Shown here: in pieces, positions 5,388 through 63,018 of the stretch
Position numbering within the stretch: position 1 is the stretch's first letter
How the letters are laid out: the number at the start of each line of letters is the position of its first letter
Source of the DNA: a virus
Lineage: Duplodnaviria > Caudoviricetes
IMG/VR virus record: IMGVR_UViG_3300048838_000780
Coordinates: 1-63,018 of that record
DNA: 63,018 nt
Strand: one strand, 5' to 3'
Notes under the pieces: generated by a model
What the model was told of the DNA's origin: nothing
The model's input: only the letters and a program-made list of their open reading frames with translations
Databases searched by the model: none
Program-made: the position numbers and the translations under genes

Positions 5388-5534
5388 TAACAGTAGTTTG
5401 TTTTGCCTGGAAGAATTAAACGGGATCTTTGAGGAATTCGACGTCCTTAGTTGGGATGATCCGACACATGAAACAAAAAAGGAAGAACTTTCCGGCAAGT
5501 GGTTTAAATTATTCAACAATCTAAAAGGGCAACA

Positions 5535-6581: not shown

Positions 6582-6825
6582 CCTTTTCGACCTTATCGAC
6601 CCGTCCGATCCCCAATTCGAACGGTACACTTGCAAAAACCCAATGGTTAGAAAGTATGGGTTTGGACCGGAAGGGACCAAGTGTAAAACGTGCAAATTTC
6701 TTTGTCATAGGGATATGGGGAAGCGGTATTACAAATGTGAGAAGCGGGGACTAAGCCGGTCCGAAACGACGGACCATAGGGTAAACTTCCCCGCTTGCAT
6801 ATTTTACGAAAGCGACGTACCTTAA
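6565..6825 (+). CDS. Small Cys-rich phage protein
   Basis: CKTC...KC...DHR...AC pattern. Confidence 0.65.
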   Translation: MARQIDLFDLIDPSDPQFERYTCKNPMVRKYGFGPEGTKCKTCKFLCHRDMGKRYYKCEKRGLSRSETTDHRVNFPACIFYESDVP

Positions 6826-6854
6826 TCGACCCAATCACTTAAAAAAACTTTGCA

Positions 6855-24574: not shown

Positions 24575-24575
24575 A

Positions 24576-33360: not shown

Positions 33361-36300
33361 ATGAAGAATATTTTTCTATTTGGCTTCCTCCTTCTTGCAA
33401 CCATTTCTTTTGCCCAAGTGCGACCGGATAACTTCCCTTTGCAAACGGCGCCGGATTCGTCGAACTTCGAAGTATATTCCCAAAAGAACGGAATAACAAG
33501 GCGGGCAAACCTTTGGGCGCTCAAGAAGTATTTTGCCCCCTATATTAAGGCAACCCCAATTGCATACGTCCCGGCATCAACCGGTAATACCCTGGATCTT
33601 TCGACTTTCGCACTTACCGGCGGCGATTCGCTGTACTACATCGACGGCGCCGGACGGGCGGCGTTAATTTACGATCCAAATACCTTGCAATCGTTGACCC
33701 TTTCAAACGATACCCTTTACCTATCCGGCGGCGGTGGGGTCTACTTGGGCGGCGGCGGCGCCGGTATTACCGACGGGGACAAAGGCGACATAACGGTATC
33801 GGGATCCGGCACGGTATGGGATATAGACGCGGGGACCGTTGGATCCACGGAGGTAACGGATAACAGTTTGGCGGCCGGGGATCTTTTGGTCGACGTCATA
33901 TCGTCCGTGGACGGGGTAGCGAATGACGGGGGGAACATTGACCTTGTAGCGGGCGCAAATGTGACAATAACCCCGAACGACGGCGCCAATACCATTACCA
34001 TTGCGGCGACGGACACGGATACCCAATTGTCCGAAGAACAAGTCGAAGACTTTGTCGGGGGAATGCTTACGGGTAACACGGAAACAGGGATAACGGTTAC
34101 TTATGAGGATACCGACGGAACAATCGACTTCGTGGCGACGGATCCTTCCTTGAGCAACGAAGGGTCCCTAACCGTCGGGGCGGGGACGTCGACGACGTCG
34201 ACCATTTCTTCCAATACTTCCGGATCTACGGACGTAACTTTGGAAGCGGGGGCAAATATTCTTATTTCGGAAACAGGCAATACCATTACGATTGCGGCGT
34301 CTTCGGGAACTGCAACCGTCGGGGACGGCGACTACGGGGATATTGTGGTATCGGGAACGGGTACGGTATGGGATATAGACGCGGGGACCGTCGGATCCAC
34401 GGAGGTAACGGATAACAGCTTGGCGGCCGGGGATCTTTTGGTCGACGTCGTATCGTCCGTGGACGGGGTAGCAAACGACGGGGGGAACATCGACCTTGTC
34501 GCCGGATCCAATATCACAATAACCCCGGACGACGGCGCCAATACCATTACCATTGCATCGACGGACACGGATACCCAATTGTCCGAAGAACAAGTCGAAG
34601 ACTTCGTCGGGGGGATGCTTACGGGTAACACGGAAACAGGGATAACGGTTACTTATGAGGATACCGACGGAACAATCGACTTCGTGGCGACGGATCCTTC
34701 CTTGAGCAACGAAGGATCCCTAACCGTTGGGGCGGGGACGTCGACGACGTCGACCATTTCTTCGAATACTTCCGGATCCACGGCGGTAACCCTGGAAGCG
34801 GGGACGAATATTACCCTTTCAGAAACGGGCAATACCATTACGATTGCGGCGGCAATTGGGGCGGCCGGGTCCCCTGTTTACGGGGAAGCGTACAACGCAA
34901 CAAGCGACGCCTTGGCAATAACGGCCGGGGTCCCGGTAATTTCGGACGGTATGGTCGCCGGATCGACGAACGGTTTTTCGTATTCGGCCGGACGTCTTAC
35001 ATATTCGGGGGCGTCCGCAATGTTTTTTGTCACCTATTCGGCGGAAATTCATTCGACGGCGACGGGATCCCTTACAAAAGTTTGGATCTACAAAAACGGA
35101 TCTTCCGTTGCGGACACATACCGGGAAGAATACGCGGAAGCTGCAAGCGAGAAAGAAAACATAACGACCGGCGGCCTAATCTCTTTGGATAGTTTGGACT
35201 ACCTGGAAGTTTTTTTCGATGCTTCGGAGAATGCAACGATAACGATTGAAAGCGCCAATATTTCGACAATCCGGGTTGGTAATTCTTCCGGCGGCGACGG
35301 CGTATCCGACGGCGATAAAGGCGACATAACGGTATCGGGATCCGGCACGGTATGGGATATAGACGCGGGGACCGTCGGATCCACGGAGGTAACGGATAAC
35401 AGCTTGGCGGCCGGGGATCTTTTGGTCGACGTCGTATCGTCCTTGGACGGGGTAACCAATGACGGGGGCAATATTGACCTTGTAGCGGGCGCAAATGTGA
35501 CGATAACCCCGAATGACGGCGCCAATACCATTACCATTGCGGCGACGGACACGGATACCCAATTGTCCGAAGAACAAGTCGAAGACTTCGTCGGGGGGAT
35601 GCTTACGGGTAACACGGAAACAGGGATAACGGTTACTTATGAGGATACCGACGGAACAATCGACTTCGTGGCGACGGATCCTTCCTTGAGCAACGAAGGA
35701 TCCCTAACCGTTACGGCGGGGTCCGGTACGACGTCCGTTATTTCCTCCAATACGTCCGGATCCACGGACGTAACATTGTCGGCAAGTACCGGTCTTTCCA
35801 TATCAGAAACAGGCAATACCATTACCCTAACCAATACCGGGGACACGAACGCGGGGGACGACTTGACGACGTCGACAAGTTTTTCCGGCGATGTTTCCGG
35901 ATTATACAGCAACTTGCAACTTGGGGCAAACGTCGTCGGTACGGCGGAAGTAGACGGCACCTTAACGGCGGCGGATCTTGCGGTAAACGTCGTTTCTTCC
36001 GTCGAAAACGTCACCAACGACGGGGGGAACATCGACCTTGCGGCAAGCGGCATTGTAAGCATAACAGGCGACGACGGCGCTAATACTATTACCATTGGCG
36101 TTGCCAAGGTCAAACAAATAAAAGGCGCAACAATCGAAAGTCCTGGAAGCAGCGAAAACATTTCCCTTTTTTACACGGACCATGCGATAACCATTACCAG
36201 GGTATCCGACGTCGTCCGGGGGACAACCCCTTCCGTAACGTATAACATTCGACACGCAACGACCAGGGATAGCGGGTCGCCAAATGATGTTTTTGGATCA

Positions 36301-36450
36301 AATAGGACGGTTACTTCTACTTCCGGCGCAACTACGACGACGTTTAGCGACGCGACGATACCGGCTAACTCTTGGGTCTGGCTTATCACATCTGCAACAT
36401 CCGGAACAATTACGGATATAAATATTACCCTTCAATATGAGGCGGATTAA
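33361..36450 (+). CDS. Repeat-rich fibre/adhesin-like protein with signal peptide
   Basis: MKNIFLFGFLLLATISFA-Q leader; three ~182-aa repeats. Confidence 0.75.
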   Translation: MKNIFLFGFLLLATISFAQVRPDNFPLQTAPDSSNFEVYSQKNGITRRANLWALKKYFAPYIKATPIAYVPASTGNTLDLSTFALTGGDSLYYIDGAGRAALIYDPNTLQSLTLSNDTLYLSGGGGVYLGGGGAGITDGDKGDITVSGSGTVWDIDAGTVGSTEVTDNSLAAGDLLVDVISSVDGVANDGGNIDLVAGANVTITPNDGANTITIAATDTDTQLSEEQVEDFVGGMLTGNTETGITVTYEDTDGTIDFVATDPSLSNEGSLTVGAGTSTTSTISSNTSGSTDVTLEAGANILISETGNTITIAASSGTATVGDGDYGDIVVSGTGTVWDIDAGTVGSTEVTDNSLAAGDLLVDVVSSVDGVANDGGNIDLVAGSNITITPDDGANTITIASTDTDTQLSEEQVEDFVGGMLTGNTETGITVTYEDTDGTIDFVATDPSLSNEGSLTVGAGTSTTSTISSNTSGSTAVTLEAGTNITLSETGNTITIAAAIGAAGSPVYGEAYNATSDALAITAGVPVISDGMVAGSTNGFSYSAGRLTYSGASAMFFVTYSAEIHSTATGSLTKVWIYKNGSSVADTYREEYAEAASEKENITTGGLISLDSLDYLEVFFDASENATITIESANISTIRVGNSSGGDGVSDGDKGDITVSGSGTVWDIDAGTVGSTEVTDNSLAAGDLLVDVVSSLDGVTNDGGNIDLVAGANVTITPNDGANTITIAATDTDTQLSEEQVEDFVGGMLTGNTETGITVTYEDTDGTIDFVATDPSLSNEGSLTVTAGSGTTSVISSNTSGSTDVTLSASTGLSISETGNTITLTNTGDTNAGDDLTTSTSFSGDVSGLYSNLQLGANVVGTAEVDGTLTAADLAVNVVSSVENVTNDGGNIDLAASGIVSITGDDGANTITIGVAKVKQIKGATIESPGSSENISLFYTDHAITITRVSDVVRGTTPSVTYNIRHATTRDSGSPNDVFGSNRTVTSTSGATTTTFSDATIPANSWVWLITSATSGTITDINITLQYEAD

Positions 36451-39003
36451 AGGATATTTAATTGTCGCACTTTTGCCCCTTTTTGGGGTTGGATACGCGC
36501 AAACGGTCGAAGAATTCGTCGGGGACGGGACTTGGTCTAAACCAAGTGGAGTTACCCAAGTAATTGTCGAATGTTGGGGCGGGGGAGGCGCCGGGGGCGG
36601 CGCAACCACGAACGGCACGGGCGGGGGCGGCGGCGCCGGGGGGCAATATGCAAAAAAGACGGTTACTTATAGTTCCGGGGCGGCCTCTATTTCGTACACG
36701 GTAGGCGGCGGCGCCGTGGGTAATACGGGAAATGGAGGGACCGGCGGCGAAACAAGTTGGAATAGCGGCGAAGTCGTAGCAAAGGGCGGCGCCGGGGGCG
36801 TGGCAAACAACGGAAGCGGGGGGACCGGATCAACAAGCGGGGGCGTTGGCGACATTGTTTACGCGGGCGGGTCCGGGGCGGCCGGGGCTACAAGTTCCGG
36901 CGGCGGCGGCGGCGGCGCCGGGTCTACGGGAACCGGGAAGAATGCTTCGGGAACAACGGCGGGCGGCGCAACAAGTGAAAACGGCGGCGCCGGGGGTAAT
37001 GGCAGATCAACAAGCGGGGCCGGTTTAGCCGGAAGTACCTTTGGCGGCGGCGGCGGCGGCGGGAAAAAGACGACGACGACCAATAGGGCGGGCGGCGCCG
37101 GGGCGCAAGGAATGATAAGAATTACCTATACTGTTAACCCAAGAAGGGTTTTTATAATTAACTGACTATGAAAGTATTGTATTTTTTCCCCTTTTTGCTT
37201 CTTCCCTTCTTTTTGAAGGGGCAAACACCAACCGGAAGTGTACAAATACCGTCGGGTACAACGGCGCAACGTCCAACTTCCCCGGGGGTCGGTGAATTCC
37301 GTATTAATACGGATTCGTTAAAAGTCGAATTTTGGTCCGGGTCCGCTTGGGTCCTTTTGGGGGTAGGCGGCGGCGGCGGCGTATCCGACGGGGACAAAGG
37401 GGACATTACCGTATCGTCTTCCGGGACGGCATGGAATATCGACGCGGGGGTCGTCGGATCCACGGAGGTAACGGATAACAGTTTGGCGGCCGGGGATCTT
37501 TTGGTCGACGTCATATCGTCCTTGGACGGGGTAGCAAACGACGGGGGCAATATTGACCTTGTAGCGGGCGCAAATGTGACAATAACCCCGAACGACGGCG
37601 CCAATACCATTACCATTGCGGCGACGGACACGGATACCCAATTGTCCGAAGAACAAGTCGAAGACTTTGTCGGGGGGATGCTTACGGGTAACACGGAAAC
37701 AGGGATAACGGTTACTTATGAGGATACCGACGGAACAATCGACTTCGTGGCGACGGATCCTTCCTTGAGCAATGAAGGGTCCCTAACCGTCGGGGCGGGG
37801 ACGTCGACGACGTCGACCATTTCTTCGAATACGTCCGGATCCACGGCGGTAACCCTGGAAGCGGGGACGAATATTACCCTTTCAGAAACGGGGAATACCA
37901 TTACCATTGCATCGACGGCGGCCGGAATATCCGACGGGGACAAAGGGGACATTACCGTATCGTCTTCCGGGACGGCATGGAATATCGACGCGGGGGTCGT
38001 CGGATCCACGGAGGTAACGGATAACAGTTTGGCGGCCGGGGATCTTTTGGTCGACGTCATATCGTCCTTGGACGGGGTAGCAAACGACGGGGGCAATATT
38101 GACCTTGTAGCGGGCGCAAATGTGACAATAACCCCGAACGACGGCGCCAATACCATTACCATTGCGGCGACGGACACGGATACCCAATTGTCCGAAGAAC
38201 AAGTCGAAGACTTTGTCGGGGGAATGCTTACGGGTAACACGGAAACAGGGATAACGGTTACTTATGAGGATACCGACGGAACAATCGACTTCGTGGCGAC
38301 GGATCCTTCCTTGAGCAATGAAGGGTCCCTAACCGTCGGGGCGGGGACGTCGACGACGTCGACCATTTCTTCGAATACGTCCGGATCCACGGCGGTAACC
38401 CTGGAAGCGGGGACGAATATTACCCTTTCAGAAACGGGGAATACCATTACCATTGCATCGACGGCGGCCGGAATATCCGACGGGGACAAAGGGGACATTA
38501 CCGTATCGTCTTCCGGGACGGCATGGAATATCGACGCGGGGGTCGTCGGATCCACGGAGGTAACGGATAACAGTTTGGCGGCCGGGGATCTTGCCGTCGA
38601 CGTCGTATCGTCCTTGGACGGGGTAGCAAACGACGGGGGCAATATTGACCTTGTAGCGGGCGCAAATGTGACAATAACCCCGAATGACGGCGCCAATACC
38701 ATTACCATTGCGGCGACGGACACGGATACCCAATTGTCCGAAGAACAAGTCGAAGACTTCGTCGGGGGGATGCTTACGGGTAACACGGAAACAGGGATAA
38801 CGGTTACTTATGAGGATACCGACGGAACAATCGACTTCGTGGCGACGGATCCTTCCTTGAGCAATGAAGGGTCCCTAACCGTCGGGGCGGGGACGTCGAC
38901 GACGTCGACCATTTCTTCGAATACGTCCGGATCCACGGCGGTAACCCTGGAAGCGGGGACGAATATTACCCTTTCAGAAACGGGCAATACCATTACCATT
39001 GCG
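33772..39003 (+). repeat. Six highly similar ~546-bp repeats shared by two genes
   Basis: Copies start near 33772, 34324, 35308, 37387, 37933 and 38479 (DGDKGDITVS...SETGNTITI). Confidence 0.93.
36437..37165 (+). CDS. Glycine-rich tail-associated domain protein with signal peptide
   Basis: TWSKPSGVTQVIVECWGGGGAGG...GAQGMIRITY motif; leader ends in GYA-Q. Confidence 0.75.
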   Translation: MRRIKGYLIVALLPLFGVGYAQTVEEFVGDGTWSKPSGVTQVIVECWGGGGAGGGATTNGTGGGGGAGGQYAKKTVTYSSGAASISYTVGGGAVGNTGNGGTGGETSWNSGEVVAKGGAGGVANNGSGGTGSTSGGVGDIVYAGGSGAAGATSSGGGGGGAGSTGTGKNASGTTAGGATSENGGAGGNGRSTSGAGLAGSTFGGGGGGGKKTTTTNRAGGAGAQGMIRITYTVNPRRVFIIN

Positions 39004-40026
39004 GCGGCCGGGGGCGGCGGCGGGTCCCCTTCCGTTATCACTCCTTCGACCATTACGGCACAACAAGACAATTATTCCCCGACGGGTTGGGCGGATGCAA
39101 CTTTTGTCCGTCTTTCCGGCGATATAGATATGGATGCAATTACCGGATTTTCGGCGGAAACTTCCGGGGAAGTAAAGACCCTTGGAAACGTTGGGGACTA
39201 TACGATCTTCATTTCCCCGGAAAATACTTCTTCGACGGCTGCAAATCGCATTTCCTATCCGGAAGATATTTTGTTGGAACCAGGGGAAAGTATGCAAATA
39301 ATCTACGACGGGACTTTAACCCGTTGGGTCCCCTTGTCTTGTCCGTCAAAAGGATTTTCCAATATTCGCCGGTCTTGGTTCGCCAATAAAAGTTCCGGCC
39401 GGGCGGCGGAAGGGATAGCGGACGATATAAATATCCTTTTTGCCTATTCCGGGGGTAGCATTTCTTCGCAAAGTTCGACGGCGACGACCCCCCTTTCCGC
39501 ATGGGCATTGGCAACCGGTACGACGACGACCGGGGATTGTTACGGGTATATGGCTAAAGGGTCTGAAAACATGGGGTACATTGGATCCGCTTATATGTAC
39601 ACGGAATGTCTTTTCCAGCTTGAAGACTTAAGCGACGGGACCAACGGGTACGACCTTTATTTCCGCCTTACGACTTCCCCTTCGTCTACTTCCGTAACGG
39701 CAAACAATAGTCTTGGTATTCGTTATTCCGACGACGTCAATTCTGGAAAACTGGAAGCCTTTACGCGCAATTCGTCCGGGACAGAAACGACCCTGGATCT
39801 TGGGGTAACCGTTGCGGCGGATACTCCTTATCGCCTTGGCGTGTCTATAAACAAAGCGGGGACCTTGGCGACGTTCTTTGTAAACGATAATGTAGTAGGT
39901 CAGATAACGACCAATCTTCCAAGTGGAACGGATCTTGGAACGGCCTTCTTCATTAAGAAGACAGCCGGAACGACTTCCCGGACGGCGTATTTATTCCGAA
40001 TCTTAGGCGTGGCAGTGTTACCATAA
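37168..40026 (+). CDS. Second repeat-rich fibre-like protein with signal peptide
   Basis: Leader ends in LKG-Q; PSGTTAQRP fibre motif; three 182-aa repeats; beta-rich C-terminal domain. Confidence 0.75.
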   Translation: MKVLYFFPFLLLPFFLKGQTPTGSVQIPSGTTAQRPTSPGVGEFRINTDSLKVEFWSGSAWVLLGVGGGGGVSDGDKGDITVSSSGTAWNIDAGVVGSTEVTDNSLAAGDLLVDVISSLDGVANDGGNIDLVAGANVTITPNDGANTITIAATDTDTQLSEEQVEDFVGGMLTGNTETGITVTYEDTDGTIDFVATDPSLSNEGSLTVGAGTSTTSTISSNTSGSTAVTLEAGTNITLSETGNTITIASTAAGISDGDKGDITVSSSGTAWNIDAGVVGSTEVTDNSLAAGDLLVDVISSLDGVANDGGNIDLVAGANVTITPNDGANTITIAATDTDTQLSEEQVEDFVGGMLTGNTETGITVTYEDTDGTIDFVATDPSLSNEGSLTVGAGTSTTSTISSNTSGSTAVTLEAGTNITLSETGNTITIASTAAGISDGDKGDITVSSSGTAWNIDAGVVGSTEVTDNSLAAGDLAVDVVSSLDGVANDGGNIDLVAGANVTITPNDGANTITIAATDTDTQLSEEQVEDFVGGMLTGNTETGITVTYEDTDGTIDFVATDPSLSNEGSLTVGAGTSTTSTISSNTSGSTAVTLEAGTNITLSETGNTITIAAAGGGGGSPSVITPSTITAQQDNYSPTGWADATFVRLSGDIDMDAITGFSAETSGEVKTLGNVGDYTIFISPENTSSTAANRISYPEDILLEPGESMQIIYDGTLTRWVPLSCPSKGFSNIRRSWFANKSSGRAAEGIADDINILFAYSGGSISSQSSTATTPLSAWALATGTTTTGDCYGYMAKGSENMGYIGSAYMYTECLFQLEDLSDGTNGYDLYFRLTTSPSSTSVTANNSLGIRYSDDVNSGKLEAFTRNSSGTETTLDLGVTVAADTPYRLGVSINKAGTLATFFVNDNVVGQITTNLPSGTDLGTAFFIKKTAGTTSRTAYLFRILGVAVLP

Positions 40027-41811: not shown

Positions 41812-42300
41812 ATGAACAGCTTAAATCTTGAGCGCTTCCGGAACATCATTCTTGGGGATCCTTCCCCGTCCGCTTTGGATATTCGTACCAAGATCCAAGA
41901 AGTAGCGCAAATTGCCAACCGGCTAAACGACCTTGCATCGGAGGAAGAAAATTGGCGCAAGGCGTCCGCCTTGGGTACCTTGGCCTTGGACCTCCAAAAA
42001 GCCTTGGAAGTTTTTTACCTGGAATACAACGCGGCCGAACTTTGCCGCAAGACCCGGGACCATTTGGTCGAAGTCGGTTGGGAAGGCTTCGTCCAAATGT
42101 TACCCAAGGAATACCTTTCGATTGTGGATGCAATCGACCTCAAGTTTGGATCGGCCGATAACCCCTTCGAAGAATTCGTCTTCGACTTCGATTGGCATTT
42201 GGTCCCCTTGTCCGGATCGGATCCCCGAAAGTGGATCCCTGAAGATTGGGAAACGCTTTGTCGGCATTTTTCGGCAACCTATACAATGATTTTTCGCTAA
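41812..42300 (+). CDS. Hypothetical protein
   Basis: 162-aa ORF after the promoter. Confidence 0.65.
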   Translation: MNSLNLERFRNIILGDPSPSALDIRTKIQEVAQIANRLNDLASEEENWRKASALGTLALDLQKALEVFYLEYNAAELCRKTRDHLVEVGWEGFVQMLPKEYLSIVDAIDLKFGSADNPFEEFVFDFDWHLVPLSGSDPRKWIPEDWETLCRHFSATYTMIFR

Positions 42301-42747: not shown

Positions 42748-42874
42748 ATTTGGAAAGACGCGACTACTTATTCCCGTAACGACAAAGACCGGATCCCTTC
42801 CGTCTTCGAATACCAAAACGGGGGGCTTTGTATTACAGTGGTCCGGGGTCACCGTTTCAACCCGGAAAATTGGG
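42748..42874 (+). repeat. 127-bp exact direct repeat, copy 2 of 1-127
   Basis: Direct comparison. Confidence 0.97.
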
Positions 42875-43326
42875 GCGTGTGCGTAAACGGTGAATGCGAA
42901 TGCCCGCCACAATGGACCGGGCCCAGCTGCTCCCAGGAGGTGACGCCGGTCAAAATGCGGGTAACGTACATTGCTCTCAACTCCTTCCCTCCTACCGACG
43001 GCAACGGCGCCGGCTGGGATCTGTTCGACGGGCCAGACGTGTACCTCTCTATCTGGAAAGATGGAGTGCAGCTGTACAAATCCAATTGGTACGAAGATCT
43101 TACCATTGGCGCATTTTGGGAAACCAACTTTGAATTTTCCGACCCAACGGCAACCTATAATCTCCGCGTCTACGATTACGACGACGGCATTACCGCGGAT
43201 GACCTCATGGGATGGATTGATTTCACGCCGTACCGCCCAGGGCAGAAGTTTCCCACCTCCTACCCTGTCAGCTGCTCGGGATGTATCGTTTCTTTCGAAT
43301 TTACTGGCGTGTCCTACTTCCATTAA
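42874..43326 (+). CDS. 3' part of an EGF-like domain lipoprotein (5' part at 62793-62891)
   Basis: Joined sequence CEGIICNNG+GVCVNGECECPPQWTGPSC gives a six-Cys EGF pattern. Confidence 0.85.
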   Translation, partial: GVCVNGECECPPQWTGPSCSQEVTPVKMRVTYIALNSFPPTDGNGAGWDLFDGPDVYLSIWKDGVQLYKSNWYEDLTIGAFWETNFEFSDPTATYNLRVYDYDDGITADDLMGWIDFTPYRPGQKFPTSYPVSCSGCIVSFEFTGVSYFH

Positions 43327-44005
43327 AATATCTTCTTCTCCAGCCGGCGGATCTTCTCCGCCGGCTTCTCATGGATGTACTTCATGGTAATTTTCGGATC
43401 GTGGTGGCCTGCCTGTTTCATAAGGTCCAGCAGGCTGATATTTTCGCTCAGATCTGTGAGCCCAGAATCCTTCCAGCTGTAAAAAGAAAGCCCCAGGATA
43501 CTCTTTATTGCCCCAGACCTATAAAGTTGCTCTAAGGCCCGTTTGTGTGCGTGGTAGAAGGCATCTTTTTTGGCTGGAGATCTCCCGACTTTCAGGCCTG
43601 GGCCAAATACAAACCTGTCAGGGGCATATTTCGAAACAATCTGCTCCAGCGCCGGCAAAATGGCATTTGGTACAGTAACAGTGCGGGGTTTTTGCGTTTT
43701 GGTGATCGATCCCGGCAGCCTGATAACCTTCTCCTCTACATCGATGCAATGAACCTGCATTTTCCGGAGCTCATTGGGCCGGATGAAGCAGTAATAAGAC
43801 AGCAGCACTCCGAGGAATAGCCCAGGGTTGTTTTCCGCTATCCAGGCCGCCACCGTCCGGCGCTCTTCGTCGGAGAAGTTACGCCGGCGCTTTTGTGCCG
43901 GCTTTTTCTTTGTCACCTGATCCCAGGGGTTGGCCTGGATGTATTCCCGGGCCTTCAGCTCATTGAAAAGAGCTTTGAGAATAGTCTGGTAATTGTTGCT
44001 GGTGG
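43323..44005 (-). pseudogene. int: Tyrosine integrase lacking its N-terminal part
   Basis: Catalytic IRPNEL, KT, YSWK, GH and Y motifs; the frame extends upstream to ATSNNYQTILKALFNEL...NPW but has no start before GTG 43916. Confidence 0.75.
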
Positions 44006-46304: not shown

Positions 46305-47747
46305 ATGGTCAAAGATGATTTCTTACGCGAAGTGGAAGCGCTCGCACTGGCGAAGCAACAGCAGGAGGAGCAGGAGACACAGGATATTTCCACCCGTTTC
46401 CAGGCTCTCATGCAAGAGAAAAAGCAGGGTAGCAACCCTTTCCCCACCGATGCGCTACCCAAACGCCTGGGCGATATCGCCAAGGTTTTCAATACCTGCT
46501 ACGGTTTACCGATCGATTATTATGGCCTGGGGATGCTTACCGCGGCATCCATCGCCATTGGCAATGCCTACGTGGTGCGCTACAAATACAACCAGTGTTA
46601 CCCGCCTATGCTTTACAGCGCCATTGTGGGCAACAGCTCGATAGGGAAGACGCCGGCAATTATGCACTGCCTTAGCCCGATCTTCGACCTGGAGGACCAG
46701 TACCGCCACCAGTACGACGGCCAAATGCAGGCCTGGAAACAGGAGTGCTTTGAGCTCCAGGTGAGCGGCATGAAGCGGGAAGACCCGCCCAAGCCGATCC
46801 AGCGAGAGCTCATTATCAACGATGCCACCAGCGAGGCAATCACCATTGCCCTGAGCCACAACCCCAGGGGCCTGCTGCTCTTCCAGGATGAGCTCAACGC
46901 CTGGATAAAAAGTCAGAACCAATACCGGAAGGGTAGCGATGGAGAGTTTTGGCTCTCTGTCTGGAGCAACCAAAGCCGGAAGGTTAGCAGGGTTGGCAAA
47001 GATCCGCTCTATGCCAAAAATCCCTTTGTGTCGGTGATCGGTGGCGTTCAGCCTTCTATTCTCAACGACTTTGCAGGGGAGGGGAGAGCGGAAAATGGAT
47101 ATCTGGCCAGGATTCTCTTTGCCTGGCCCGACGAGATGAAGAAGCCCCACGAAAGCGACAACAGCCCAGATCCGGAAGTTTTCGCCGCGTACCGGGAGAT
47201 CATCAAGCGCCTGCACAACCTGCCGCACAACTTCACTGAGGAGGGTTTTGGCGAAGCCATCCAGATCAGCCTCACCAGCAGGGCCCTGGCTGCTTACAAA
47301 CGCTGGCACCGAGACAACACCGACCAGATCAACGCCGAGGAGAACGACGTTGTAAAATCGATCCTGGGCAAAATGGAGCAATACCTCCTCCGCCTGGCCC
47401 TGATTATTTCCCTGCTCGATCTGGCCATACAAAAGGAAACCTGGACTGAAGAGGAGCTACAAGCCCACGAGATAGGGGAGGACGAAGTGATAAGGGCCAT
47501 GCTGCTGATCGGCTATTTCAAAAAAACCGCCATGCGGGTGATCGGCAGCGTAGAAAGCCCGGTGAAGAAATTGAGCCCTGAAAAGGAGGCCTTTTACGAG
47601 GCCCTACCCGAAGAGTTCAGCACAAAAAGCGCCCTGGAGGCCGGAGAGAAAGCCGACATTTCCGAACGTACCATAAAGAGGATGCTCAATGATTTTACTC
47701 TCTTCCGCCAGCTGGGGAGGGGGAGGTATAGAAAGGTTTATGTGTGA
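46305..47747 (+). CDS. DUF3987 (YfjI-like) P-loop replication protein
   Basis: FPTDALP, IVGNSSIGKTPA, NDATSEA, QDEL, IGGVQP and GYLARILF motifs; C-terminal wHTH. Confidence 0.88.
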   Translation: MVKDDFLREVEALALAKQQQEEQETQDISTRFQALMQEKKQGSNPFPTDALPKRLGDIAKVFNTCYGLPIDYYGLGMLTAASIAIGNAYVVRYKYNQCYPPMLYSAIVGNSSIGKTPAIMHCLSPIFDLEDQYRHQYDGQMQAWKQECFELQVSGMKREDPPKPIQRELIINDATSEAITIALSHNPRGLLLFQDELNAWIKSQNQYRKGSDGEFWLSVWSNQSRKVSRVGKDPLYAKNPFVSVIGGVQPSILNDFAGEGRAENGYLARILFAWPDEMKKPHESDNSPDPEVFAAYREIIKRLHNLPHNFTEEGFGEAIQISLTSRALAAYKRWHRDNTDQINAEENDVVKSILGKMEQYLLRLALIISLLDLAIQKETWTEEELQAHEIGEDEVIRAMLLIGYFKKTAMRVIGSVESPVKKLSPEKEAFYEALPEEFSTKSALEAGEKADISERTIKRMLNDFTLFRQLGRGRYRKVYV

Positions 47748-54996: not shown

Positions 54997-55743
54997 ATGG
55001 CAATGCCAACCCTTGACGGATTAAAAGAGTGGTTCTTTCTCCAAACCAAAGAAGGGCAGCCCTGTGGCTGGCGCCTCTTCCGCGGATCGAACACCAACAA
55101 AAATTATGATGGTGGATCTGCTGAAAGCGAAAACCCGGAAATAGGCTGGGAAAAGCTCCGCGCCCACCTGGAGGCCGAAGAGTGGGAGCCCGGCGAACAA
55201 GTTACCATCCGTGTATACGGCAATGGTAAACTGAACGGTGGGGGCTCCGATATCATTTACCGGCCGATCTCCAGGCATCAAACGAGGGTAGGCATTGCCG
55301 GTATTGGTGGCGGGATCGGAGGAGATCCCCAGGCTTACATTGCCCAGCAGGTAAGCAAGGAGATAGAGCTCTATGACCTACGCCGGCAGGTGCAGGATCT
55401 GGAGCAGGCATTGAACGAGAAAAGCAGCGTAGTGGACAGGGTGATCAACACCGTGGTGGAACATCCCAACTTTGACCCCAACACTTTGGTAAACGGTATC
55501 GGCGCACTGCTCATGAACCTGATACCCCAGCGGGCCAACGTCGGGGTGCAGGGCTTTGGCCAGCCGACGGCGCCGCACACCGGCGAACACTCTGCCCAGG
55601 CAGACCGCATTGCAGGCGCCCTCAATCGCTTGCAAGCGCACTTCCCGGAGCAACCAATTGAGATCTTATTGGAAAAACTGGCTGATTTCGTGGACAGCAA
55701 CCCCACAGTGGCCAAGAACGTGTTAACCAACCTTTTCAAATGA
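54997..55743 (+). CDS. Putative virion protein with coiled coil
   Basis: Three (I/V)xGxG motifs. Confidence 0.6.
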   Translation: MAMPTLDGLKEWFFLQTKEGQPCGWRLFRGSNTNKNYDGGSAESENPEIGWEKLRAHLEAEEWEPGEQVTIRVYGNGKLNGGGSDIIYRPISRHQTRVGIAGIGGGIGGDPQAYIAQQVSKEIELYDLRRQVQDLEQALNEKSSVVDRVINTVVEHPNFDPNTLVNGIGALLMNLIPQRANVGVQGFGQPTAPHTGEHSAQADRIAGALNRLQAHFPEQPIEILLEKLADFVDSNPTVAKNVLTNLFK

Positions 55744-56060
55744 AACCAGTGGTAGACGGGCACATAGTACAGGAGTTTTCGCTCAAAACGCGCCAGATCA
55801 ACGAACCTGGAAAAATTTCCATCCGTGCCAACAGCGTAACCCTTTGGAATACGGGAACCAATACGGTTATCCTGGATAATGTGTTTGAGATCCCGGCCGG
55901 TGCCTCTTTCCAGTTCGGAGATAACAACCTGCTCAACATGATCGTGCAGGAGTTCAACGTGAAGTTTTCCGGCGCTGGAACGGACAAACTGCAAATAGCT
56001 GAAGTAATTGTAAACGACAGGCGCCTGGCGCACTACGTCGAGCGCCCGACGGCAAAATAA
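55740..56060 (+). CDS. Small beta-sandwich structural protein
   Basis: SVTLWNTGTNTVIL...IPAGASF. Confidence 0.55.
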   Translation: MKPVVDGHIVQEFSLKTRQINEPGKISIRANSVTLWNTGTNTVILDNVFEIPAGASFQFGDNNLLNMIVQEFNVKFSGAGTDKLQIAEVIVNDRRLAHYVERPTAK

Positions 56061-56067
56061 ACCATGT

Positions 56068-56397
56068 ATGAGCTTCATTGGATGCAACCCAGCCGGAGGA
56101 TCTGGAAGCGGTGGCGGTGGCGAAACGCCAACAGCCGACACCCTGACCATTACCAGCGGTGAAAATACCACCGATTTCAACCGCGCAGCTGGGGCCCTCA
56201 AATTTAAGATCACCAACGCAGGCCCGGCAGCCGGCGGCACGGCCGACACCGCCACGGTGAACGGCGCCAACCTGTTTCCCGGCGATAGCCTGGAGTTTGA
56301 GGCGAAGCTCGACCCAGTGAACAATGTTTTCAAGACCCTCCCGGCAATGACAATTGTCACCAACGGGGCAACGCTGTTCTGGTATGAAGAAAGGTAA
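56068..56397 (+). CDS. Small beta-sandwich structural protein
   Basis: FKITNAG...LFPGDSL. Confidence 0.55.
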   Translation: MSFIGCNPAGGSGSGGGGETPTADTLTITSGENTTDFNRAAGALKFKITNAGPAAGGTADTATVNGANLFPGDSLEFEAKLDPVNNVFKTLPAMTIVTNGATLFWYEER

Positions 56398-56953
56398 AGT
56401 GTGGAGTTTTCTCATAGTAATTTCCCTCATCGGACTGAGCCCGGCAATTGGCTGGGCTCAATTCCCTTTCTACGACATCGAGCTGGAGCCGGTATGTGCC
56501 GACAGCGCCGGCGTACAAACCACGCTGTACAGCGCCCAGCTGTACGTTTTGGGCCGGAATGGATTTGATGTTGTGTACCAGTACTATTTCGACCAGGCGG
56601 GCAACAAGGTAACGCCTGGAGGTGGCGTAACGATCTCCCCAGGGGCCTGCTGGGAGCAGGTGACGGAAGACACCGCCCAGGTGCTCACCTTCGAAAGCGC
56701 CTTTTCTGGGGGAGACTACACAATACCAGGCGATACCTACGATTGGGTAAGCATCGTTAACCAGGGGGGCACTACCCACCTGATCACCTTTCCGGCCAGC
56801 GGGGGCACTATGCGCCTGCTGCCCGGAGAGGCCTATTATTTTCGCTCGCACTTCGACGAGTTTTACCGGAAGCGCATGAGAAACCCCACCATTGTGATCA
56901 GCCAGGGGGTGGCAGGATTGAATAACCTAAGAGTATACGCCGAGGCAAAATGA
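56384..56953 (+). CDS. Signal-peptide protein (spike candidate)
   Basis: Leader ends in GWA-Q; VSIVNQG...LLPGEAY resembles the two preceding small genes. Confidence 0.65.
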   Translation: MKKGKVWSFLIVISLIGLSPAIGWAQFPFYDIELEPVCADSAGVQTTLYSAQLYVLGRNGFDVVYQYYFDQAGNKVTPGGGVTISPGACWEQVTEDTAQVLTFESAFSGGDYTIPGDTYDWVSIVNQGGTTHLITFPASGGTMRLLPGEAYYFRSHFDEFYRKRMRNPTIVISQGVAGLNNLRVYAEAK

Positions 56954-58800
56954 AAAGGGTAGCACTATTCATATTTTTGGTTTTTTGGGGGTTCTTTCAG
57001 GCTGGATACGGGCAAGGAAGCGAGACAAGGTATGACGTGGAGTATGCCCGTATCTGCCTGATTGATAGCATCGCGCCGGATACGCTGGTACAGTTCTGGC
57101 GTTTCACCCAGGCGAACAATCCCGGCGCCCTGGCCCTGGATTATACTTTTGACCTGGCCGGGGGCTACACCGTGGCCGGTACCGTCCTCCCCTGCTGCTC
57201 CTGCCTGACGGCTGCCAGCGATACCGCCGGTTTTTCTCCCTGCCAGCCAACCGGTATAGGTTGGGGCTGGAAAATTGCCATTGCTCTGGTGCTTTTGCTC
57301 GCTGCCAGCTGGCTGATAAGTGTATGGGGCCTGCTCGAATTTGGCAGGCGATACCAGAAGGCCGCGAGAATCGCGTATATCCTACTTATATCCATCCTGT
57401 TTTCGTACAGCTCACTCTCAGCGCAATCAGAAACCACCTACGATGTGGAATATCAGTGCATTTGTCTGGTGGATAGCATCGCGCCGGGAAACGTGGTTCA
57501 ATTCTGGCGTTTCACCCAGGCCAACAATCCCGGCGCCCTGGCCCTGGATTATACTTTTGACCTGGCCGGGGGCTACACCGTGGCCGGTACCGTCATGGGC
57601 TGCAATGATTACTACCTGGGGGATAATGTGAATAGTGGAGGGGGTACCGCTGGCACGTTGCCGATCTGGACGGGGGCTAATACGCTGGGGAATAGCAGCC
57701 TTTCGGAAGCGAGCGGTGTGCTTTCTTCGAGCCTTACCGGGGCGCTGAAGCTGCCAGCGGGGACGGATGCACAGGACCCGGTTTGGAGTACTGGGATGTT
57801 GAGGTACAATACTACTACTGCCGGATTACAAGGCTATAATGGTGCAGAAAGATATTTACCATGGTCAGACAATGACAATTTTACTACTGCTTATATTCCG
57901 TACAGTAATGGATCATCACTTACAACTAGTGCCGATTTGGGCTTTTACATTGTTACTGGCAGTAATAGATTAGGTGTTCTTAATGCAAAATTAGGTACTA
58001 CATATGCCGGAACAATTAGAGGCCGATTAGATGTATCTGGGCAGGCTGGCGATCATACATCATATTTTGAATGCACAGGAAGCACTTTTTCTTCATCTAT
58101 TTTTAGTGTTAACACTAACGTAAATGGATGGGGTCCATTTTTCGTACTTCCAGAAAACAGCAATAAACCTAATCTTTTTTTAGGAGAGTCTAACACCATT
58201 CAAAGAACAAGCCAAAAAGAAACAATCAAAATATCAGGAAATAACAGCACAAATAATAATGGTAATTTTTTTGTGGGTGTTAATGGTGGCAAATCAATTT
58301 CATGGGAATATTCTCGATCTATAGGACCATCAGCCCAGCCATCATATAAATTTGAATCTGCACGTATTGTTCCTATATGCACAGCAAATGTATATGGGGA
58401 TATGGAAACAGGTTTAAGGTTTTATAACACTGTGGCCAACACGCTTACATATACTGCTCAGCTAGATAGTGCGGGGTTGATTCTTCCGTTGTACGCACCC
58501 GGAACGCTTACCGGAACGCCCGCCACTACTGCCGCTTTCAATTCTTCGGGGCGTCTTATTCAGGTACCAGAAAAATGGGCCGCCATCTCCACCTCCACCG
58601 ACGCCAGCGGAGACATCGTAGTAGCCCACGGCATGGGCGCCACGCCGACCAGTGTACAGGTAACAGTAACCGGCACCACGCCGTATGTGGTGACAGTCCA
58701 CAGTATAGACGCCACTAATTTTACAGTAAGGTTTTACGATATGACAGGGGCAGCGGTGGCATCCACCGCGGTAACCGCCACCTGGCACGCAAAAACATAA
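56950..58800 (+). CDS. Fibre/spike protein with two signal peptides and a duplicated N-terminal domain
   Basis: See finding; LPAGTDAQDP fibre motif; C-terminal VAHGMGATPTSVQVT domain. Confidence 0.75.
   Translation: MKRVALFIFLVFWGFFQAGYGQGSETRYDVEYARICLIDSIAPDTLVQFWRFTQANNPGALALDYTFDLAGGYTVAGTVLPCCSCLTAASDTAGFSPCQPTGIGWGWKIAIALVLLLAASWLISVWGLLEFGRRYQKAARIAYILLISILFSYSSLSAQSETTYDVEYQCICLVDSIAPGNVVQFWRFTQANNPGALALDYTFDLAGGYTVAGTVMGCNDYYLGDNVNSGGGTAGTLPIWTGANTLGNSSLSEASGVLSSSLTGALKLPAGTDAQDPVWSTGMLRYNTTTAGLQGYNGAERYLPWSDNDNFTTAYIPYSNGSSLTTSADLGFYIVTGSNRLGVLNAKLGTTYAGTIRGRLDVSGQAGDHTSYFECTGSTFSSSIFSVNTNVNGWGPFFVLPENSNKPNLFLGESNTIQRTSQKETIKISGNNSTNNNGNFFVGVNGGKSISWEYSRSIGPSAQPSYKFESARIVPICTANVYGDMETGLRFYNTVANTLTYTAQLDSAGLILPLYAPGTLTGTPATTAAFNSSGRLIQVPEKWAAISTSTDASGDIVVAHGMGATPTSVQVTVTGTTPYVVTVHSIDATNFTVRFYDMTGAAVASTAVTATWHAKT
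57094..57594 (+). repeat. 93-bp direct repeat (57094-57186 and 57502-57594, one mismatch)
   Basis: Both copies encode FWRFTQANNPGALALDYTFDLAGGYTVAGTV. Confidence 0.92.
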
Positions 58801-58806
58801 CCACGC

Positions 58807-59457
58807 ATGAAACAGATATTCCTCTTTTTACTCCTCCTCCCCTTCCTCGCTCCCGCGCAAAGCGATCTGGAAGTTACCGACGTGCTCCAGGAGATCGTCG
58901 AAGATGCTGGCGTGTACTACGTCGTCACCACCACTAAGTTTTCAGCAGGTCCGCCGCAGGTAATACCGCAGAAGATCGGAGGACGCCAGGAAATGCTTAC
59001 CTATGCCCAGACAGCCGCCGTAAACCAGCAGCAGGCCATTGCCGCCGCCAGGCGGGTAGTGGTAGAAGACGCGCCGATAGCCTTCCGGCAATTCCTTGGC
59101 CTGGACACGCTTATCAGGGAGATTACCGGGGGAGATACTACCATATACGACCTCAACGCCGGTAGCTACTTCGCACAGTACGAAGGGCGCTACCGCGTCA
59201 GATCGGCCAGCGGGGTAACGGACTACACCGCCAAGATTATACGCCTGGCCAATGGCCAGCTACGCCTGGAGCGGGAAAGCGACGGGGTAAGATACAGCCT
59301 GCTGGTGCTCAGCCCGAAAAGTTTCCGGCTGGTGAACATACCGATAGGCAGCGTACCGGCTGCCGTGTACGACATGAGCGAGATCAGCCCAATGCCCGAC
59401 GGCAAGCCCAGGTACCGGGATGAAACGCGCATTTTCACCATTGTGAAGCTGGAGTAA
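58807..59457 (+). CDS. Signal-peptide protein
   Basis: MKQIFLFLLLLPFLAPA-Q. Confidence 0.7.
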   Translation: MKQIFLFLLLLPFLAPAQSDLEVTDVLQEIVEDAGVYYVVTTTKFSAGPPQVIPQKIGGRQEMLTYAQTAAVNQQQAIAAARRVVVEDAPIAFRQFLGLDTLIREITGGDTTIYDLNAGSYFAQYEGRYRVRSASGVTDYTAKIIRLANGQLRLERESDGVRYSLLVLSPKSFRLVNIPIGSVPAAVYDMSEISPMPDGKPRYRDETRIFTIVKLE

Positions 59458-59879: not shown

Positions 59880-60148
59880 CGCAAGACAAAACCGTGAACA
59901 TGAGCCCATGGGCCTGGATACTCGACCTGCTGAAAAAGCAGGGCCTTTCTTTCGTGTTGTTGGGCTTTGCCGTCTGGTATTTTTACGGAGAGGTGAAACG
60001 GCTGGAGGAGAAAGCGGATCTGTGCCAGTCAAAGATTATTACCCTCTACCAGGAGGTGATTATCAGGAATACGCACACGCTGGAGGATGTTACGTGGTAT
60101 TTGGATGAGCTGTACCAAAACAAGGATAGACAGAAAAATAAAAAATGA
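59876..60148 (+). CDS. Holin-like protein
   Basis: One TM plus coiled coil, upstream of the amidase. Confidence 0.55.
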   Translation: MTQDKTVNMSPWAWILDLLKKQGLSFVLLGFAVWYFYGEVKRLEEKADLCQSKIITLYQEVIIRNTHTLEDVTWYLDELYQNKDRQKNKK

Positions 60149-60151
60149 TCT

Positions 60152-60403
60152 ATGCGAAACTTATTGCTTTTTGGAATTGGTGTATTGGTCGGCATGGAGC
60201 TGGCCAAAAGCAGGAAGGCCAGCCAGACGCCGGCCGACAACAGCCCGGCACTGACCGACAACCAGACGCCGACAATGGGGGGCCTGTACCAGTACAACCC
60301 GAGCGGATTGAAAGGAGCAATCCCCTATCAGCCATACGGCGTACGCTGGGGCTCCGGCAATCAATATTTAGACACGACGAAAAAGGCGCAGCTGGCAATA
60401 TGA
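60152..60403 (+). CDS. Small membrane protein
   Basis: N-terminal TM; ATGA overlap with the amidase start. Confidence 0.6.
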   Translation: MRNLLLFGIGVLVGMELAKSRKASQTPADNSPALTDNQTPTMGGLYQYNPSGLKGAIPYQPYGVRWGSGNQYLDTTKKAQLAI

Positions 60404-60951
60404 AGCTGAAGCCCTGGCAATGGATTGGCCTGGGGGGAGGGTTGCTTTTCCTCTGGCAAAAAATGCAAGCCGCTGGTATGGTGAACATCATCGACATAAC
60501 GAAGAAATTGCCCAAAGGATCGGGCTCCTACCCTTCCAGGCCGTTGGAAGCTATCAATATGTTCGTGCTGCACCATAGCGCCACCACCAGCGGAGATCCT
60601 TGGGCCTATGCCAGGTATCACGTGGAAAACAATGGCTGGCCAGGCATTGGCTACCATTTTGTGATCCAGAAAGACGGCACCGTTTACCAGACCAACAAAC
60701 TAACCACCGCCAGTTACCACGCCAGTGGAGTGAACAGCCAAAGCGTGGGCATTTGCCTTACTGGCTTTTACGACAACACCCAGCCGCCACCGGCTCAATA
60801 TAATGCCCTGATCGGGCTATTTCGGCTTCTTCGGGATACGCTCGGCCAAAAACCGATTTACGGACACAATAAGTTTTCTTCCAAATCCTGCCCTGGCTCG
60901 GCTCTCGATGTTGCAGGCATCGAGGCCGAAGCATGGGGCCTAAATGTGTAG
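60400..60951 (+). CDS. N-acetylmuramoyl-L-alanine amidase (Amidase_2/T7 lysozyme type) with N-terminal TM
   Basis: VLHHSA, GWPGIGYHF, SVGICLTG and GH...KSCPG motifs. Confidence 0.92.
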   Translation: MKLKPWQWIGLGGGLLFLWQKMQAAGMVNIIDITKKLPKGSGSYPSRPLEAINMFVLHHSATTSGDPWAYARYHVENNGWPGIGYHFVIQKDGTVYQTNKLTTASYHASGVNSQSVGICLTGFYDNTQPPPAQYNALIGLFRLLRDTLGQKPIYGHNKFSSKSCPGSALDVAGIEAEAWGLNV

Positions 60952-60953
60952 CC

Positions 60954-61544
60954 ATGCCAGGAGGAGTAGTTCTTTCCGGAACACCGGGCCAAATTGCCCA
61001 GGTCGTCATTGTAGGCAGCCAAGCCAGCAGAACCGCCCAGGAATCGGCGCTTATTGCCGCCGCTAACCAGGCATGGTTTGCCCTGCCGGCAGATATGGAC
61101 CTCCCGATCTGGCCAGACGGCGCCGCCGTCGTCGAGGCCGGCGTATTTCCGAAGTCTGCCAACGTCAGGCCCGGCCAGGTGCTCTATGCGCAATACAAAG
61201 ACGGTGGCAATTGGGAGATCCGCGCCCGGCTCGAATGGCCCAGCATGGTGGCTATGAAAGATACCTACCTGGCTGTCCTGCTCAACCAAAACCTCCCGGC
61301 TACCGGCCAGGAGTTTCAACCAGAAGAAGACAAAAAGCTCTCTCTGGGGCTCGGGCTGTTCAATCTGTGGATACCGGATTTCCTCCCAAACCTCCCTCCT
61401 CTCGTCTGGCTGCTCATTGCCCTACTCTCCGGATATGGCGCCTATGAGAAAAAGAAAATCGTGCCACGGGTGGCCCTGGGCGCCGTGGCGTGGATCGCCG
61501 CCGCCAAATTCATCCAGTCTAACCAAAAAAATATCCGCTTATGA
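60954..61544 (+). CDS. Membrane protein
   Basis: Two C-terminal TM helices. Confidence 0.6.
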   Translation: MPGGVVLSGTPGQIAQVVIVGSQASRTAQESALIAAANQAWFALPADMDLPIWPDGAAVVEAGVFPKSANVRPGQVLYAQYKDGGNWEIRARLEWPSMVAMKDTYLAVLLNQNLPATGQEFQPEEDKKLSLGLGLFNLWIPDFLPNLPPLVWLLIALLSGYGAYEKKKIVPRVALGAVAWIAAAKFIQSNQKNIRL

Positions 61545-61939
61545 AAAAGATCCTCGCTCTGTTTTCTCTTCTGCTGATCGCCATTATGGCATTTGCCCAG
61601 CAGGCCGTTGGCGATACCATTGTATTGCCTGATCCCCTTGGGCCCAGCTCTACCCTGCCCGATTTCCTCAACCTTTACAGCCTCCTGGAGGGCGCTGTAA
61701 TCGTCATACTCGGATATCTCCATAACTGGATCCCGGGTTTGAATCTCATACCGGCAAAATGGTTCCGTATTGTGCTTATTGGCGCCGGGGTGGGGGTTAT
61801 TTTCGTAGCCCTGGGATTCGCCAATGGTATCGGCACCGTCTTTGTATTTTTGCAGGCCGTTGGCTTTTATTCCCTTATCCTGAAGCCGGTGGCGCCCAGC
61901 CCTCCCGTACCTCCCAAACCTGAAAAAACCGGCAGATGA
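61541..61939 (+). CDS. Signal-peptide multi-TM protein
   Basis: Leader ends in AFA-Q, then three TM helices. Confidence 0.65.
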   Translation: MKKILALFSLLLIAIMAFAQQAVGDTIVLPDPLGPSSTLPDFLNLYSLLEGAVIVILGYLHNWIPGLNLIPAKWFRIVLIGAGVGVIFVALGFANGIGTVFVFLQAVGFYSLILKPVAPSPPVPPKPEKTGR

Positions 61940-62792: not shown

Positions 62793-62891
62793 ATGAAAAA
62801 AATCCTTTTCCTCGCCGGCCTACTGGCGCTGGCATCCTGCCAAAAAGATCCCCAGGAAAAACTCTGTGAGGGCATTATTTGCAACAATGGT
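62793..62891 (+). CDS. 5' part of the EGF-like lipoprotein
   Basis: MKKILFLAGLLALASC lipobox, then QKDPQEKLCEGIICNNG. Confidence 0.85.
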
Positions 62892-63018
62892 GAATACCTT
62901 TCGATTGTGGATGCAATCGACCTCAAGTTTGGATCGGCCGATAACCCCTTCGAAGAATTCGTCTTCGACTTCGATTGGCATTTGGTCCCCTTGTCCGGAT
63001 CGGATCCCCGAAAGTGGA
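62892..63018 (+). repeat. 127-bp exact copy of 42109-42235
   Basis: Direct comparison. Confidence 0.97.

Follow-up and report, generated by a model that had tools for sequence, protein, structure and literature searches.

A tailed-phage gene that joins a membrane-anchor protein to a fibre-like protein through a predicted internal signal peptide

Introduction

Enveloped eukaryotic viruses characteristically have their polyproteins cut by the host signal peptidase, as in the flavivirus C-prM-E, hepacivirus core-E1-E2 and bunyavirus Gn-Gc polyproteins; in bacteria, such processing is very rare. One bacterial example is FbcH of Bradyrhizobium japonicum, a precursor of cytochrome b-c1 in which a signal peptide lies inside the chain. 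Phage proteins exported through the Sec pathway include the filamentous-phage coat proteins pIII and pVIII and the signal-anchor-release (SAR) endolysins. To our knowledge, polyprotein processing by signal peptidase has never been described for a phage, and we found no phage precedent for it in the literature. Here we describe an open reading frame (ORF) at positions 56950-58800 of a 63,018-nt IMG/VR virus record, IMGVR_UViG_3300048838_000780 (the whole record is called the window below), which joins an anchor gene (A) to a fibre-like gene (B) and whose product is probably processed in this way.

Like the eukaryotic viral polyproteins, the window gene holds in a single ORF a stop-transfer transmembrane (TM) segment and an internal signal predicted to restart translocation, followed by a site of the Ala-X-Ala type, at which the host signal peptidase would release an anchored product and a downstream ectodomain in a fixed 1:1 ratio. 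It differs from them in its bacterial host, a tailed phage without an envelope, two products only and a cleavage deduced from comparison; furthermore, an unfused two-gene state coexists in its close relatives. As in FbcH, a bacterial membrane protein is joined to a periplasmic protein through an internal signal, and the two parts are separate genes elsewhere. FbcH, however, belongs to a cellular respiratory complex and not to a phage, and its products have no paralogous N-terminal domains. Like pIII, pVIII and the SAR endolysins, the products would use the host Sec pathway and signal peptidase, whereas those proteins come from separate genes with N-terminal signals. The principle of a polyprotein processed by signal peptidase is known, and its setting in a phage and in Bacteroidota is new; if the reading is correct, it would be the first case of signal-peptidase processing of a phage polyprotein.

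Gln at +1 is the mark of the Q-rule for signal peptidase I (SPase I) substrates of Bacteroidetes, described in PMC5837995 and PMC10653852. Both predicted cuts in the window protein, G21-Q22 and A158-Q159, and those in at least six neighbouring or fibre-like ORFs would expose such a Gln. In contrast to known Q-rule cases, where the signals are N-terminal, one of the signals here is internal. Phages of Porphyromonas gingivalis are reported to encode Q-rule proteins of unknown function (PMC10367356).

Anatomy of the gene

The ORF consists of the following parts (a hyphen marks a predicted cut).

56950..58800, + strand: fused A-B ORF, 616 aa plus stop; open frame without internal stops, its ATG overlapping the stop of the upstream gene (ATGA)
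56950..57012, + strand: signal peptide 1, residues 1-21, predicted cut GYG-Q22; G21 and Q22 nearly invariant in the alignment, heuristic scan
57013..57210, + strand: domain copy 1, residues 22-87, ending in the Cys cluster LPCCSCLT (80-87); conserved columns and AlphaFold2 model
57091..57183, + strand: near-identical 93-nt tract, copy 1, with 2 differences from copy 2
57274..57336, + strand: TM1, residues 109-129, predicted stop-transfer anchor for domain 1; Kyte-Doolittle segment 102-130, model helix 105-134
57337..57369, + strand: basic loop EFGRRYQKAAR, residues 130-140, predicted to be cytoplasmic; holds the fusion junction GCC GCG AGA (57361-57369)
57370..57423, + strand: h- and c-regions of the predicted internal signal peptide, residues 141-158; predicted SPase I site SLSA-Q159 between 57423 and 57424
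57424..57603, + strand: domain copy 2, residues 159-218, predicted N-terminus of the fibre-like product; repeat and alignments
57499..57591, + strand: near-identical 93-nt tract, copy 2, partner of 57091-57183
57604..58797, + strand: fibre-like body, residues 219-616; phrog_25721 match, PF26696 in relatives, similarity to ORF 37168-40026

Signal peptide 1 reads MKRVALFIFLVFWGFFQAGYG ahead of Q22, the hydrophobic stretch at residues 107-129 reads WKIAIALVLLLAASWLISVWGLL, and the second signal-like segment reads IAYILLISILFSYSSLSA ahead of Q159. An earlier sequence-only reading of the window had named GYG-Q22, a first domain copy with a Cys cluster, a TM segment, a GRRYQKAAR loop, SLSA-Q159, a second copy and a fibre body, and all of them are found in the sequence. 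The range it gave for them, 56950-57600, spans the N-terminal third of the ORF; the gene itself runs to 58800.

The two domain copies form a direct repeat of 174 nt at 84% identity (57022-57195 and 57430-57603; repeat search). Their spacing of 408 nt equals the offset of 136 aa reported before, and the 93 bp described as near-identical differ at 2 of 93 positions (57091-57183 and 57499-57591). In the flanking codons, 30 of 78 positions differ. The 93-nt tract is a recent gene-conversion tract. Residues specific to each paralogue are retained in its flanks: copy 2 has an additional Cys at its position 7, and CCSC in one copy stands against GC(N/K)DYY in the other.

Fused and split relatives

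Relatives of the whole protein were sought in a collection of 5.8 billion proteins, and the 28 proteins obtained, including the window's own, were sorted by a motif scan and by eye. Both domain copies are present in one chain in 13 of the 28 (P0001, P0002, P0004, P0005, P0006, P0007, P0009, the N-truncated P0010, P0012, P0013, P0014, P0015 and P0026). Seven others carry one copy directly behind an N-terminal signal of their own (P0003, P0008, P0011 with a cut signal, P0016, P0018, P0019 and P0025), and eight are without any copy. The fused sequences have four kinds of source (JGI, ENA, Logan and NCBI), and because the layout recurs in 13 fused sequences besides the window's, it is not a product of chance. 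Shorter proteins, searched with residues 1-230, yielded 13 stand-alone A-type proteins of 129-146 aa, each with signal peptide, domain and CC(S/E)C. In 12 of the 13, the C-terminus is a hydrophobic stretch followed by a short basic tail, and P0036 ends differently. As judged by the identical sizes of their longest contigs, A protein P0031 lies on the same 3869-nt contig as the unfused fibre P0003, and P0033 on the same 21623-nt contig as the unfused fibre P0018. The comparison of homologs proposed in the sequence-only reading has thereby brought out both states, which speaks for that reading, and the split state consists of the two products expected from a cut before Q159.

The junction itself can be read at a split locus, L002, where gene A occupies 762-1160 (132 aa) and gene B begins at 1157 (MRIAC...ISA-QSE), with a 4-nt ATGA overlap. 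There, the DNA reads ACC GCA TGA / ATG AGA ATA, versus GCC GCG AGA ATC in the window. The window junction is 2 nt shorter than the ATGA overlap, and with these the stop of A and the start of B are gone, leaving one frame. On this comparison the ORF arose by the natural in-frame joining of two adjacent late genes, which are separate and translationally coupled in relatives, and we are nearly certain that an anchor gene and a fibre-like gene have truly been fused here. A simple gene fusion had been offered before as the alternative to a processed polyprotein, and as history it is correct. The origin lies in two already separate, translationally coupled paralogous genes whose ATGA overlap lost 2 nt, and not in a duplication within one gene.

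Contigs from three other studies, which are assemblies and not raw reads, span 57361-57369 with 0 gaps. These are X1 record 3 (57141-57617, 26 other letters), X3 record 12 (56955-57411, 13 other letters) and X8 record 23 (57200-57487, 24 other letters), and no stop or frameshift separates two genes in them. One contig each of X2 and X8 has 57230-57396 (167 nt) exchanged for 160 other letters; from its length alone, this alternative linker fits the split frame, and the X8 side covers just 30 nt. We also considered the window linker as a frameshifted form of the linker of P0029, the closest split relative, and rejected this idea. The other two frames of 57220-57480 show no likeness to it, and therefore the TM linker of the window is a different module from that of P0029.

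A metagenome scan and a genome scan yielded one related locus each, whereas neither tblastn against 50,697 phage records nor scans of viral contigs in IMG/VR brought up any match. The fused locus L003 lies on a 26-kb contig of a Saprospiraceae metagenome-assembled genome and shares its gene neighbourhood with the window as far as the lysis genes. Its fused gene (5001-7682, P0026) encodes 893 aa with a quite different body of ~700 aa that has no family match. The N-terminal cassette of anchor, signal and domain is thus combined with different C-terminal parts.

A maximum-likelihood tree was built from the first 125 residues of B, with 24 rows, 14 fused (including the fragment P0042) and 10 unfused. 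The label fused or unfused requires seven changes on this tree, at least three of them forced by well-supported branches, and it is no more clustered than shuffled labels (162 of 500 shuffles as low). The nearest B relatives of the window, P0003 and P0008, are unfused. Such a frequent interchange is expected if both states give the same products.

The internal signal

The internal segment at residues 132-158 has a positively charged n-region, with 4 K/R in the window loop and from 2 (PARK) to 4 (GKSKRTR) in the other fused proteins. The h-region of the window, IAYILLISILFSY, has 13 residues and is followed by the c-region SSLSA, while in the other linker types the h-region has 9-12 residues, with a Pro at about -5 to -7. 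Four unrelated linker types occur among the fused proteins, and all keep a hydrophobic TM1, a K/R loop and a short h-region. Furthermore, Ala at -1, Gln at +1, Leu, Val or Ala at -3 and a K/R-rich loop are present in 14/14 fused sequences, and A158 and Q159 are invariant columns in the 13/13 rows of the fused alignment.

For scoring, we used a home-made log-odds matrix covering positions -13 to +2, derived from 35 distinct N-terminal Q-rule signals of other proteins, with no B-type signal included. The site of the 158/159 type was the best internal position in 12 of the 14 fused sequences, and in P0005 and P0006 it came second by 0.1 bit. The internal sites score 9.1-14.2, which overlaps the N-terminal signals of the unfused B proteins.

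The small domain and its matched copies

A profile search against 1.84 billion representatives found 43 proteins of the domain family at E up to 0.001. Among the members read, the domain stands directly behind the signal peptide, and both the lengths and the C-terminal parts of the proteins vary widely. AlphaFold2 on the A part, from a 38-row alignment, gave a model with a mean pLDDT of 79.8, containing helices at 2-18 and 105-134 and a small four-stranded beta domain at 32-81 (strands 32-42, 45-54, 63-66 and 78-81), with a pLDDT of about 88-96 over residues 31-85. A second model, of residues 1-267 from a 13-row alignment, was unusable (mean pLDDT 37.6). A Foldseek search of the confident A-part model against the PDB returned nothing at E up to 0.001. 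In BFVD, the best hits were unnamed viral entries at E 0.14-0.16, and VIA wide reached at best Z 3.1 with an rmsd of 2.8 over 51 residues, for small Tudor/SH3-like barrels; neither is a clear match. The conserved cysteines of copy 1 (C36, C82, C83 and C85) would fit an oxidising, periplasmic location.

Within one phage, the domain copies of A and B resemble each other in a particular way. We compared 16 A/B pairs, 13 fused and 3 split, and obtained the following identities.

Conserved half of the domain: 0.78 within pairs, 0.75 between pairs
Variable half (positions 32-51): 0.81 within pairs, 0.53 between pairs

The own partner was the best match in 13 of the 16 pairs (including two ties between near-identical proteins), second in two and fifth in one. 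Silent differences affect 8 of 22 codons for identical residues in L003 and 12 of 26 in L002, with the match at the protein level still held. Copies kept alike where the family varies point to a shared partner or to a pairing of A with B. Because the variable half is kept matched within one phage, the products of A and B would act together. The ATGA coupling, or the fusion, also fixes their ratio at 1:1. A complex prediction for domain 1 (22-100) and domain 2 (159-247) scored 0.12 against a mark of 0.32, which is no answer and evidence neither way. The finding defines a small unnamed family, whose domain follows a Q-rule signal peptide in the members read and stays matched between a membrane anchor and a fibre.

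Is the fusion protein cleaved?

The ORF runs from a stop-transfer TM segment through an internal signal to a downstream ectodomain, and its parts are independent, with A and B being separate genes in relatives and with at least three switches of state. We consider cleavage by SPase I, into the two products of the split state, the best reading, with a probability of about 0.65 judged from sequence comparison, because fused and split forms alternate, the Ala at -1, the Gln at +1 and the basic loop are kept, and contigs of other studies cross the junction. The idea of a polyprotein split by the host signal peptidase, put forward in the sequence-only reading, is thus supported in part, by an internal signal and an A/Q pair kept in 14/14, and the cut is probable. 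A number of points weigh against it. The internal-site scores are near the bottom of the 10.5-26.3 spanned by the training signals, and the matrix behind them is small and crude and fixes Q at +1. By the established (-3,-1) rule for signal peptidase sites, the Leu at -3 in the window is tolerated but not optimal, and cutting may be inefficient where the signal is internal and held in a tight hairpin. The number of switches on the B tree is rough and possibly inflated, as the tree region includes the converting and recombining domain. Gene conversion alone could produce the matching of the domains, and the 93-nt tract of the window is such a conversion. Finally, an exported fibre is hard to reconcile with the cytoplasmic assembly of a tailed virion.

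The fusion could be real and its internal signal uncut, in which case the protein, once rid of signal peptide 1, would stay whole in the membrane by a hairpin, with domain 1 and the domain 2-fibre part both periplasmic. This suits the Leu at -3, the position of the site right after the TM hairpin and the low matrix scores; besides, A and B seem to cooperate anyway, so that a permanent tether might be tolerated. However, a mere membrane span gives no reason for A at -1 and Q at +1 in 14/14 sequences across four unrelated linker types, and the Pro or the Ser-rich c-region would also be kept without need. Repeated switching with the split state, in which B is not tethered to the chain of A, argues for equivalent products, and we regard the uncut protein as unlikely, if still worth keeping in mind. 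Another way to the same two products would be an internal translation start just upstream of the second signal, with no proteolysis. In three of the 14 fused proteins (P0005, P0006 and P0026) a Met does stand a few residues before the basic loop and could begin a normal-looking signal, but the same stretch has no Met in the other 11, and the window has no in-frame ATG, GTG or TTG from the middle of TM1 (GTG 114, TTG 116) to Q159. Moreover, the former ATG was removed by the 2-nt loss, which makes an internal start improbable. An assembly frameshift or a recent inactivating mutation could also have made the fusion, as just 2 nt separate the two states and the record was assembled from a metagenome, with graph overlaps of 127 nt at its ends. 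Such an error or decaying gene is very hard to believe in view of the 13 further fused sequences from four kinds of source, whose diverged linkers stay in frame and hydrophobic, and of the junction crossed with 0 gaps in the contigs of three other studies.

Proposed biogenesis

For cleavage by SPase I, we infer the following course and topology. The product of gene A (~130 aa) would consist of a cleavable signal peptide, the beta domain of 60 aa with its cysteines, and a TM anchor that ends in a short basic tail, and that of gene B of a cleavable signal peptide, the paralogous domain and a tail-fibre-like body. In the fused gene, signal peptide 1 would carry domain 1 over the cytoplasmic membrane and be cut before Q22, TM1 (109-129) would halt the transfer, and the basic loop (130-140) would remain in the cytoplasm. 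The internal signal (141-158) would then restart translocation, now of domain 2 and the fibre, and host SPase I would cut SLSA-Q159. The outcome would be a domain 1 held in the membrane by a hairpin and, in the periplasm, a fibre-like protein that starts with Gln, in a 1:1 ratio and the same as from the split genes. As suggested before, the fibre may be free in the periplasm. Until lysis, the A product could hold B at the outer side of the cytoplasmic membrane or assist its assembly there, and such a part of the anchor in docking or assembling the fibre-like protein is plausible. With the same two proteins fused or split in close relatives, nature provides a control, and the claim is directly testable.

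The fibre-like body and its export

The fibre-like character of the body is indicated by a match of phrog_25721 to residues 255-300 (E 2.3e-4), and by its likeness to the N-terminus of ORF 37168-40026 (13/38 identities; E 0.014 in a single pairwise comparison). PF26696 (PTL_trimer) is precomputed on the relatives P0013, P0014, P0019 and P0028; the window protein itself gave no PF26696 row at E up to 0.1, and there is an Atlas feature lead of 0.90. Pfam, PHROGs and NCBIfam scans of the ORF and its neighbours gave nothing above threshold, and residues 159-616, the B part, brought up just a chance nanobody row when searched by sequence in the PDB.

Two other roles were rejected. A cargo of the type IX secretion system would have a C-terminal sorting domain, and none (Por_Secre_tail, TIGR04183 or TIGR04131) was found in B with Pfam and NCBIfam at E up to 0.1. 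A spanin pair does not fit either, since A, once its signal is cleaved, would be N-out and so of the wrong topology, and B, with 458 aa and a fibre-like character, is no lipoprotein.

Export of fibre-like proteins appears to be more general in this phage. A heuristic scan of the 268 plus-strand frames of at least 60 aa found 16 signal-like starts, eight of them with Q at +1. These include the large tail-module fibre ORFs 33361-36450 (1029 aa) and 37168-40026 (952 aa), the Gly-rich ORF 36437-37165, the gene directly upstream of A-B (U, below), the 216-aa ORF downstream of it and ORF 61541-61939. For ORF 37168-40026 the site given by the scan is wrong, and LKG-Q is likely by eye. Among the eight relatives without the domain, seven start signal-like (P0017, P0021, P0022, P0023, P0024, P0027 and P0028), and P0020 does not.

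The two large fibre ORFs share, and internally repeat several times, a unit of ~180 aa (GDKGDITVS...TDPSLSNEGSLTV...). In one of them there is also an internal copy of the jelly-roll-like module with which some relatives of the A-B protein end.

For a tailed phage, export of a tail-fibre-like protein is unexpected, and its reason is unexplained. We know of no such arrangement, and no report of one was found among the matching titles and abstracts listed. The apparent export conflicts with the usual picture of a wholly cytoplasmic virion assembly. As a speculation, to which we give rather little credence, a lineage of tailed Bacteroidota phages might send its fibres through Sec for maturation in the periplasm (disulfides, pyroglutamate), with an anchored paralogue of the fibre's N-terminal domain docking the fibre until lysis; this anchor would stem either from a coupled gene or, by the action of host signal peptidase, from the polyprotein that also holds the fibre. 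If true, the making of tailed-phage fibres would include a periplasmic stage, or the protein would be a new kind of phage-built envelope fibre.

Genomic context

The window record is classed as linear, with a CheckV completeness estimate of 100%, and most of its long ORFs are on the plus strand. It encodes a large terminase (15274-16503), a portal (16463-18316), a tape measure (24528-27305), a helicase (46305-47747) and an amidase endolysin (60145-60951). On the minus strand, 43323-43916 is an integrase-like ORF, named from reading its sequence alone. The phage is tailed and probably temperate, and its host is probably a member of the Bacteroidota; for a related phage, L003 suggests a Saprospiraceae-like host.

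The fused gene is part of an uninterrupted run of plus-strand ORFs, which overlap or abut one another and lead to small membrane proteins and the endolysin. Since this run continues into the lysis genes, A-B is taken to be a late gene, and for the same reason a lysogenic-conversion 'moron' is a disfavoured reading. Its direct neighbours are also exported by prediction.

56384..56953, + strand: upstream gene U, 189 aa counted from M11 of the listed ORF; signal peptide GWA-Q
58807..59457, + strand: downstream gene, 216 aa; signal peptide APA-Q; same tightly packed operon, on into the lysis genes

Gene U is kept upstream of A in both L002 and L003. We considered U as a third carrier of the 60-aa domain, but the resemblance of its N-terminus is weak (hhalign E 0.0014, probability 17.5%). 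The downstream gene had no family match in the family-library scans. Ahead of U-A-B lie three conserved small ORFs that have no signals (248, 106 and 109 aa), at 54997-56397 of the window and at 3034-4447 of L003, and the short L002 contig holds just the last of them (3-221), cut at the contig end. The trio has no Pfam or PHROGs match, and the 248-aa ORF is also without an NCBIfam match.

The contig ends 1-127 and 62892-63018 are exact 127-nt copies of the internal positions 42748-42874 and 42109-42235, which flank a stretch of 512 nt. These end copies look like k-mer overlaps of the assembly graph. The genome probably closes to a circle through a second copy of the resulting 766-nt region; otherwise, two paths share this region.

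At the end of the lysis region, a small ORF (62793-63017) with a lipoprotein-type signal, LASC-Q, runs into the 127-nt end repeat and is truncated where the contig stops; it is possibly an outer-membrane spanin. The endolysin at 60145-60951 has a Gly/Ala-rich hydrophobic segment ahead of its catalytic domain, which suggests a SAR-like type, and its counterpart in L003 (9004-9555) has a plain signal ending in VKA-Q. The endolysin thus seems to be exported by Sec.

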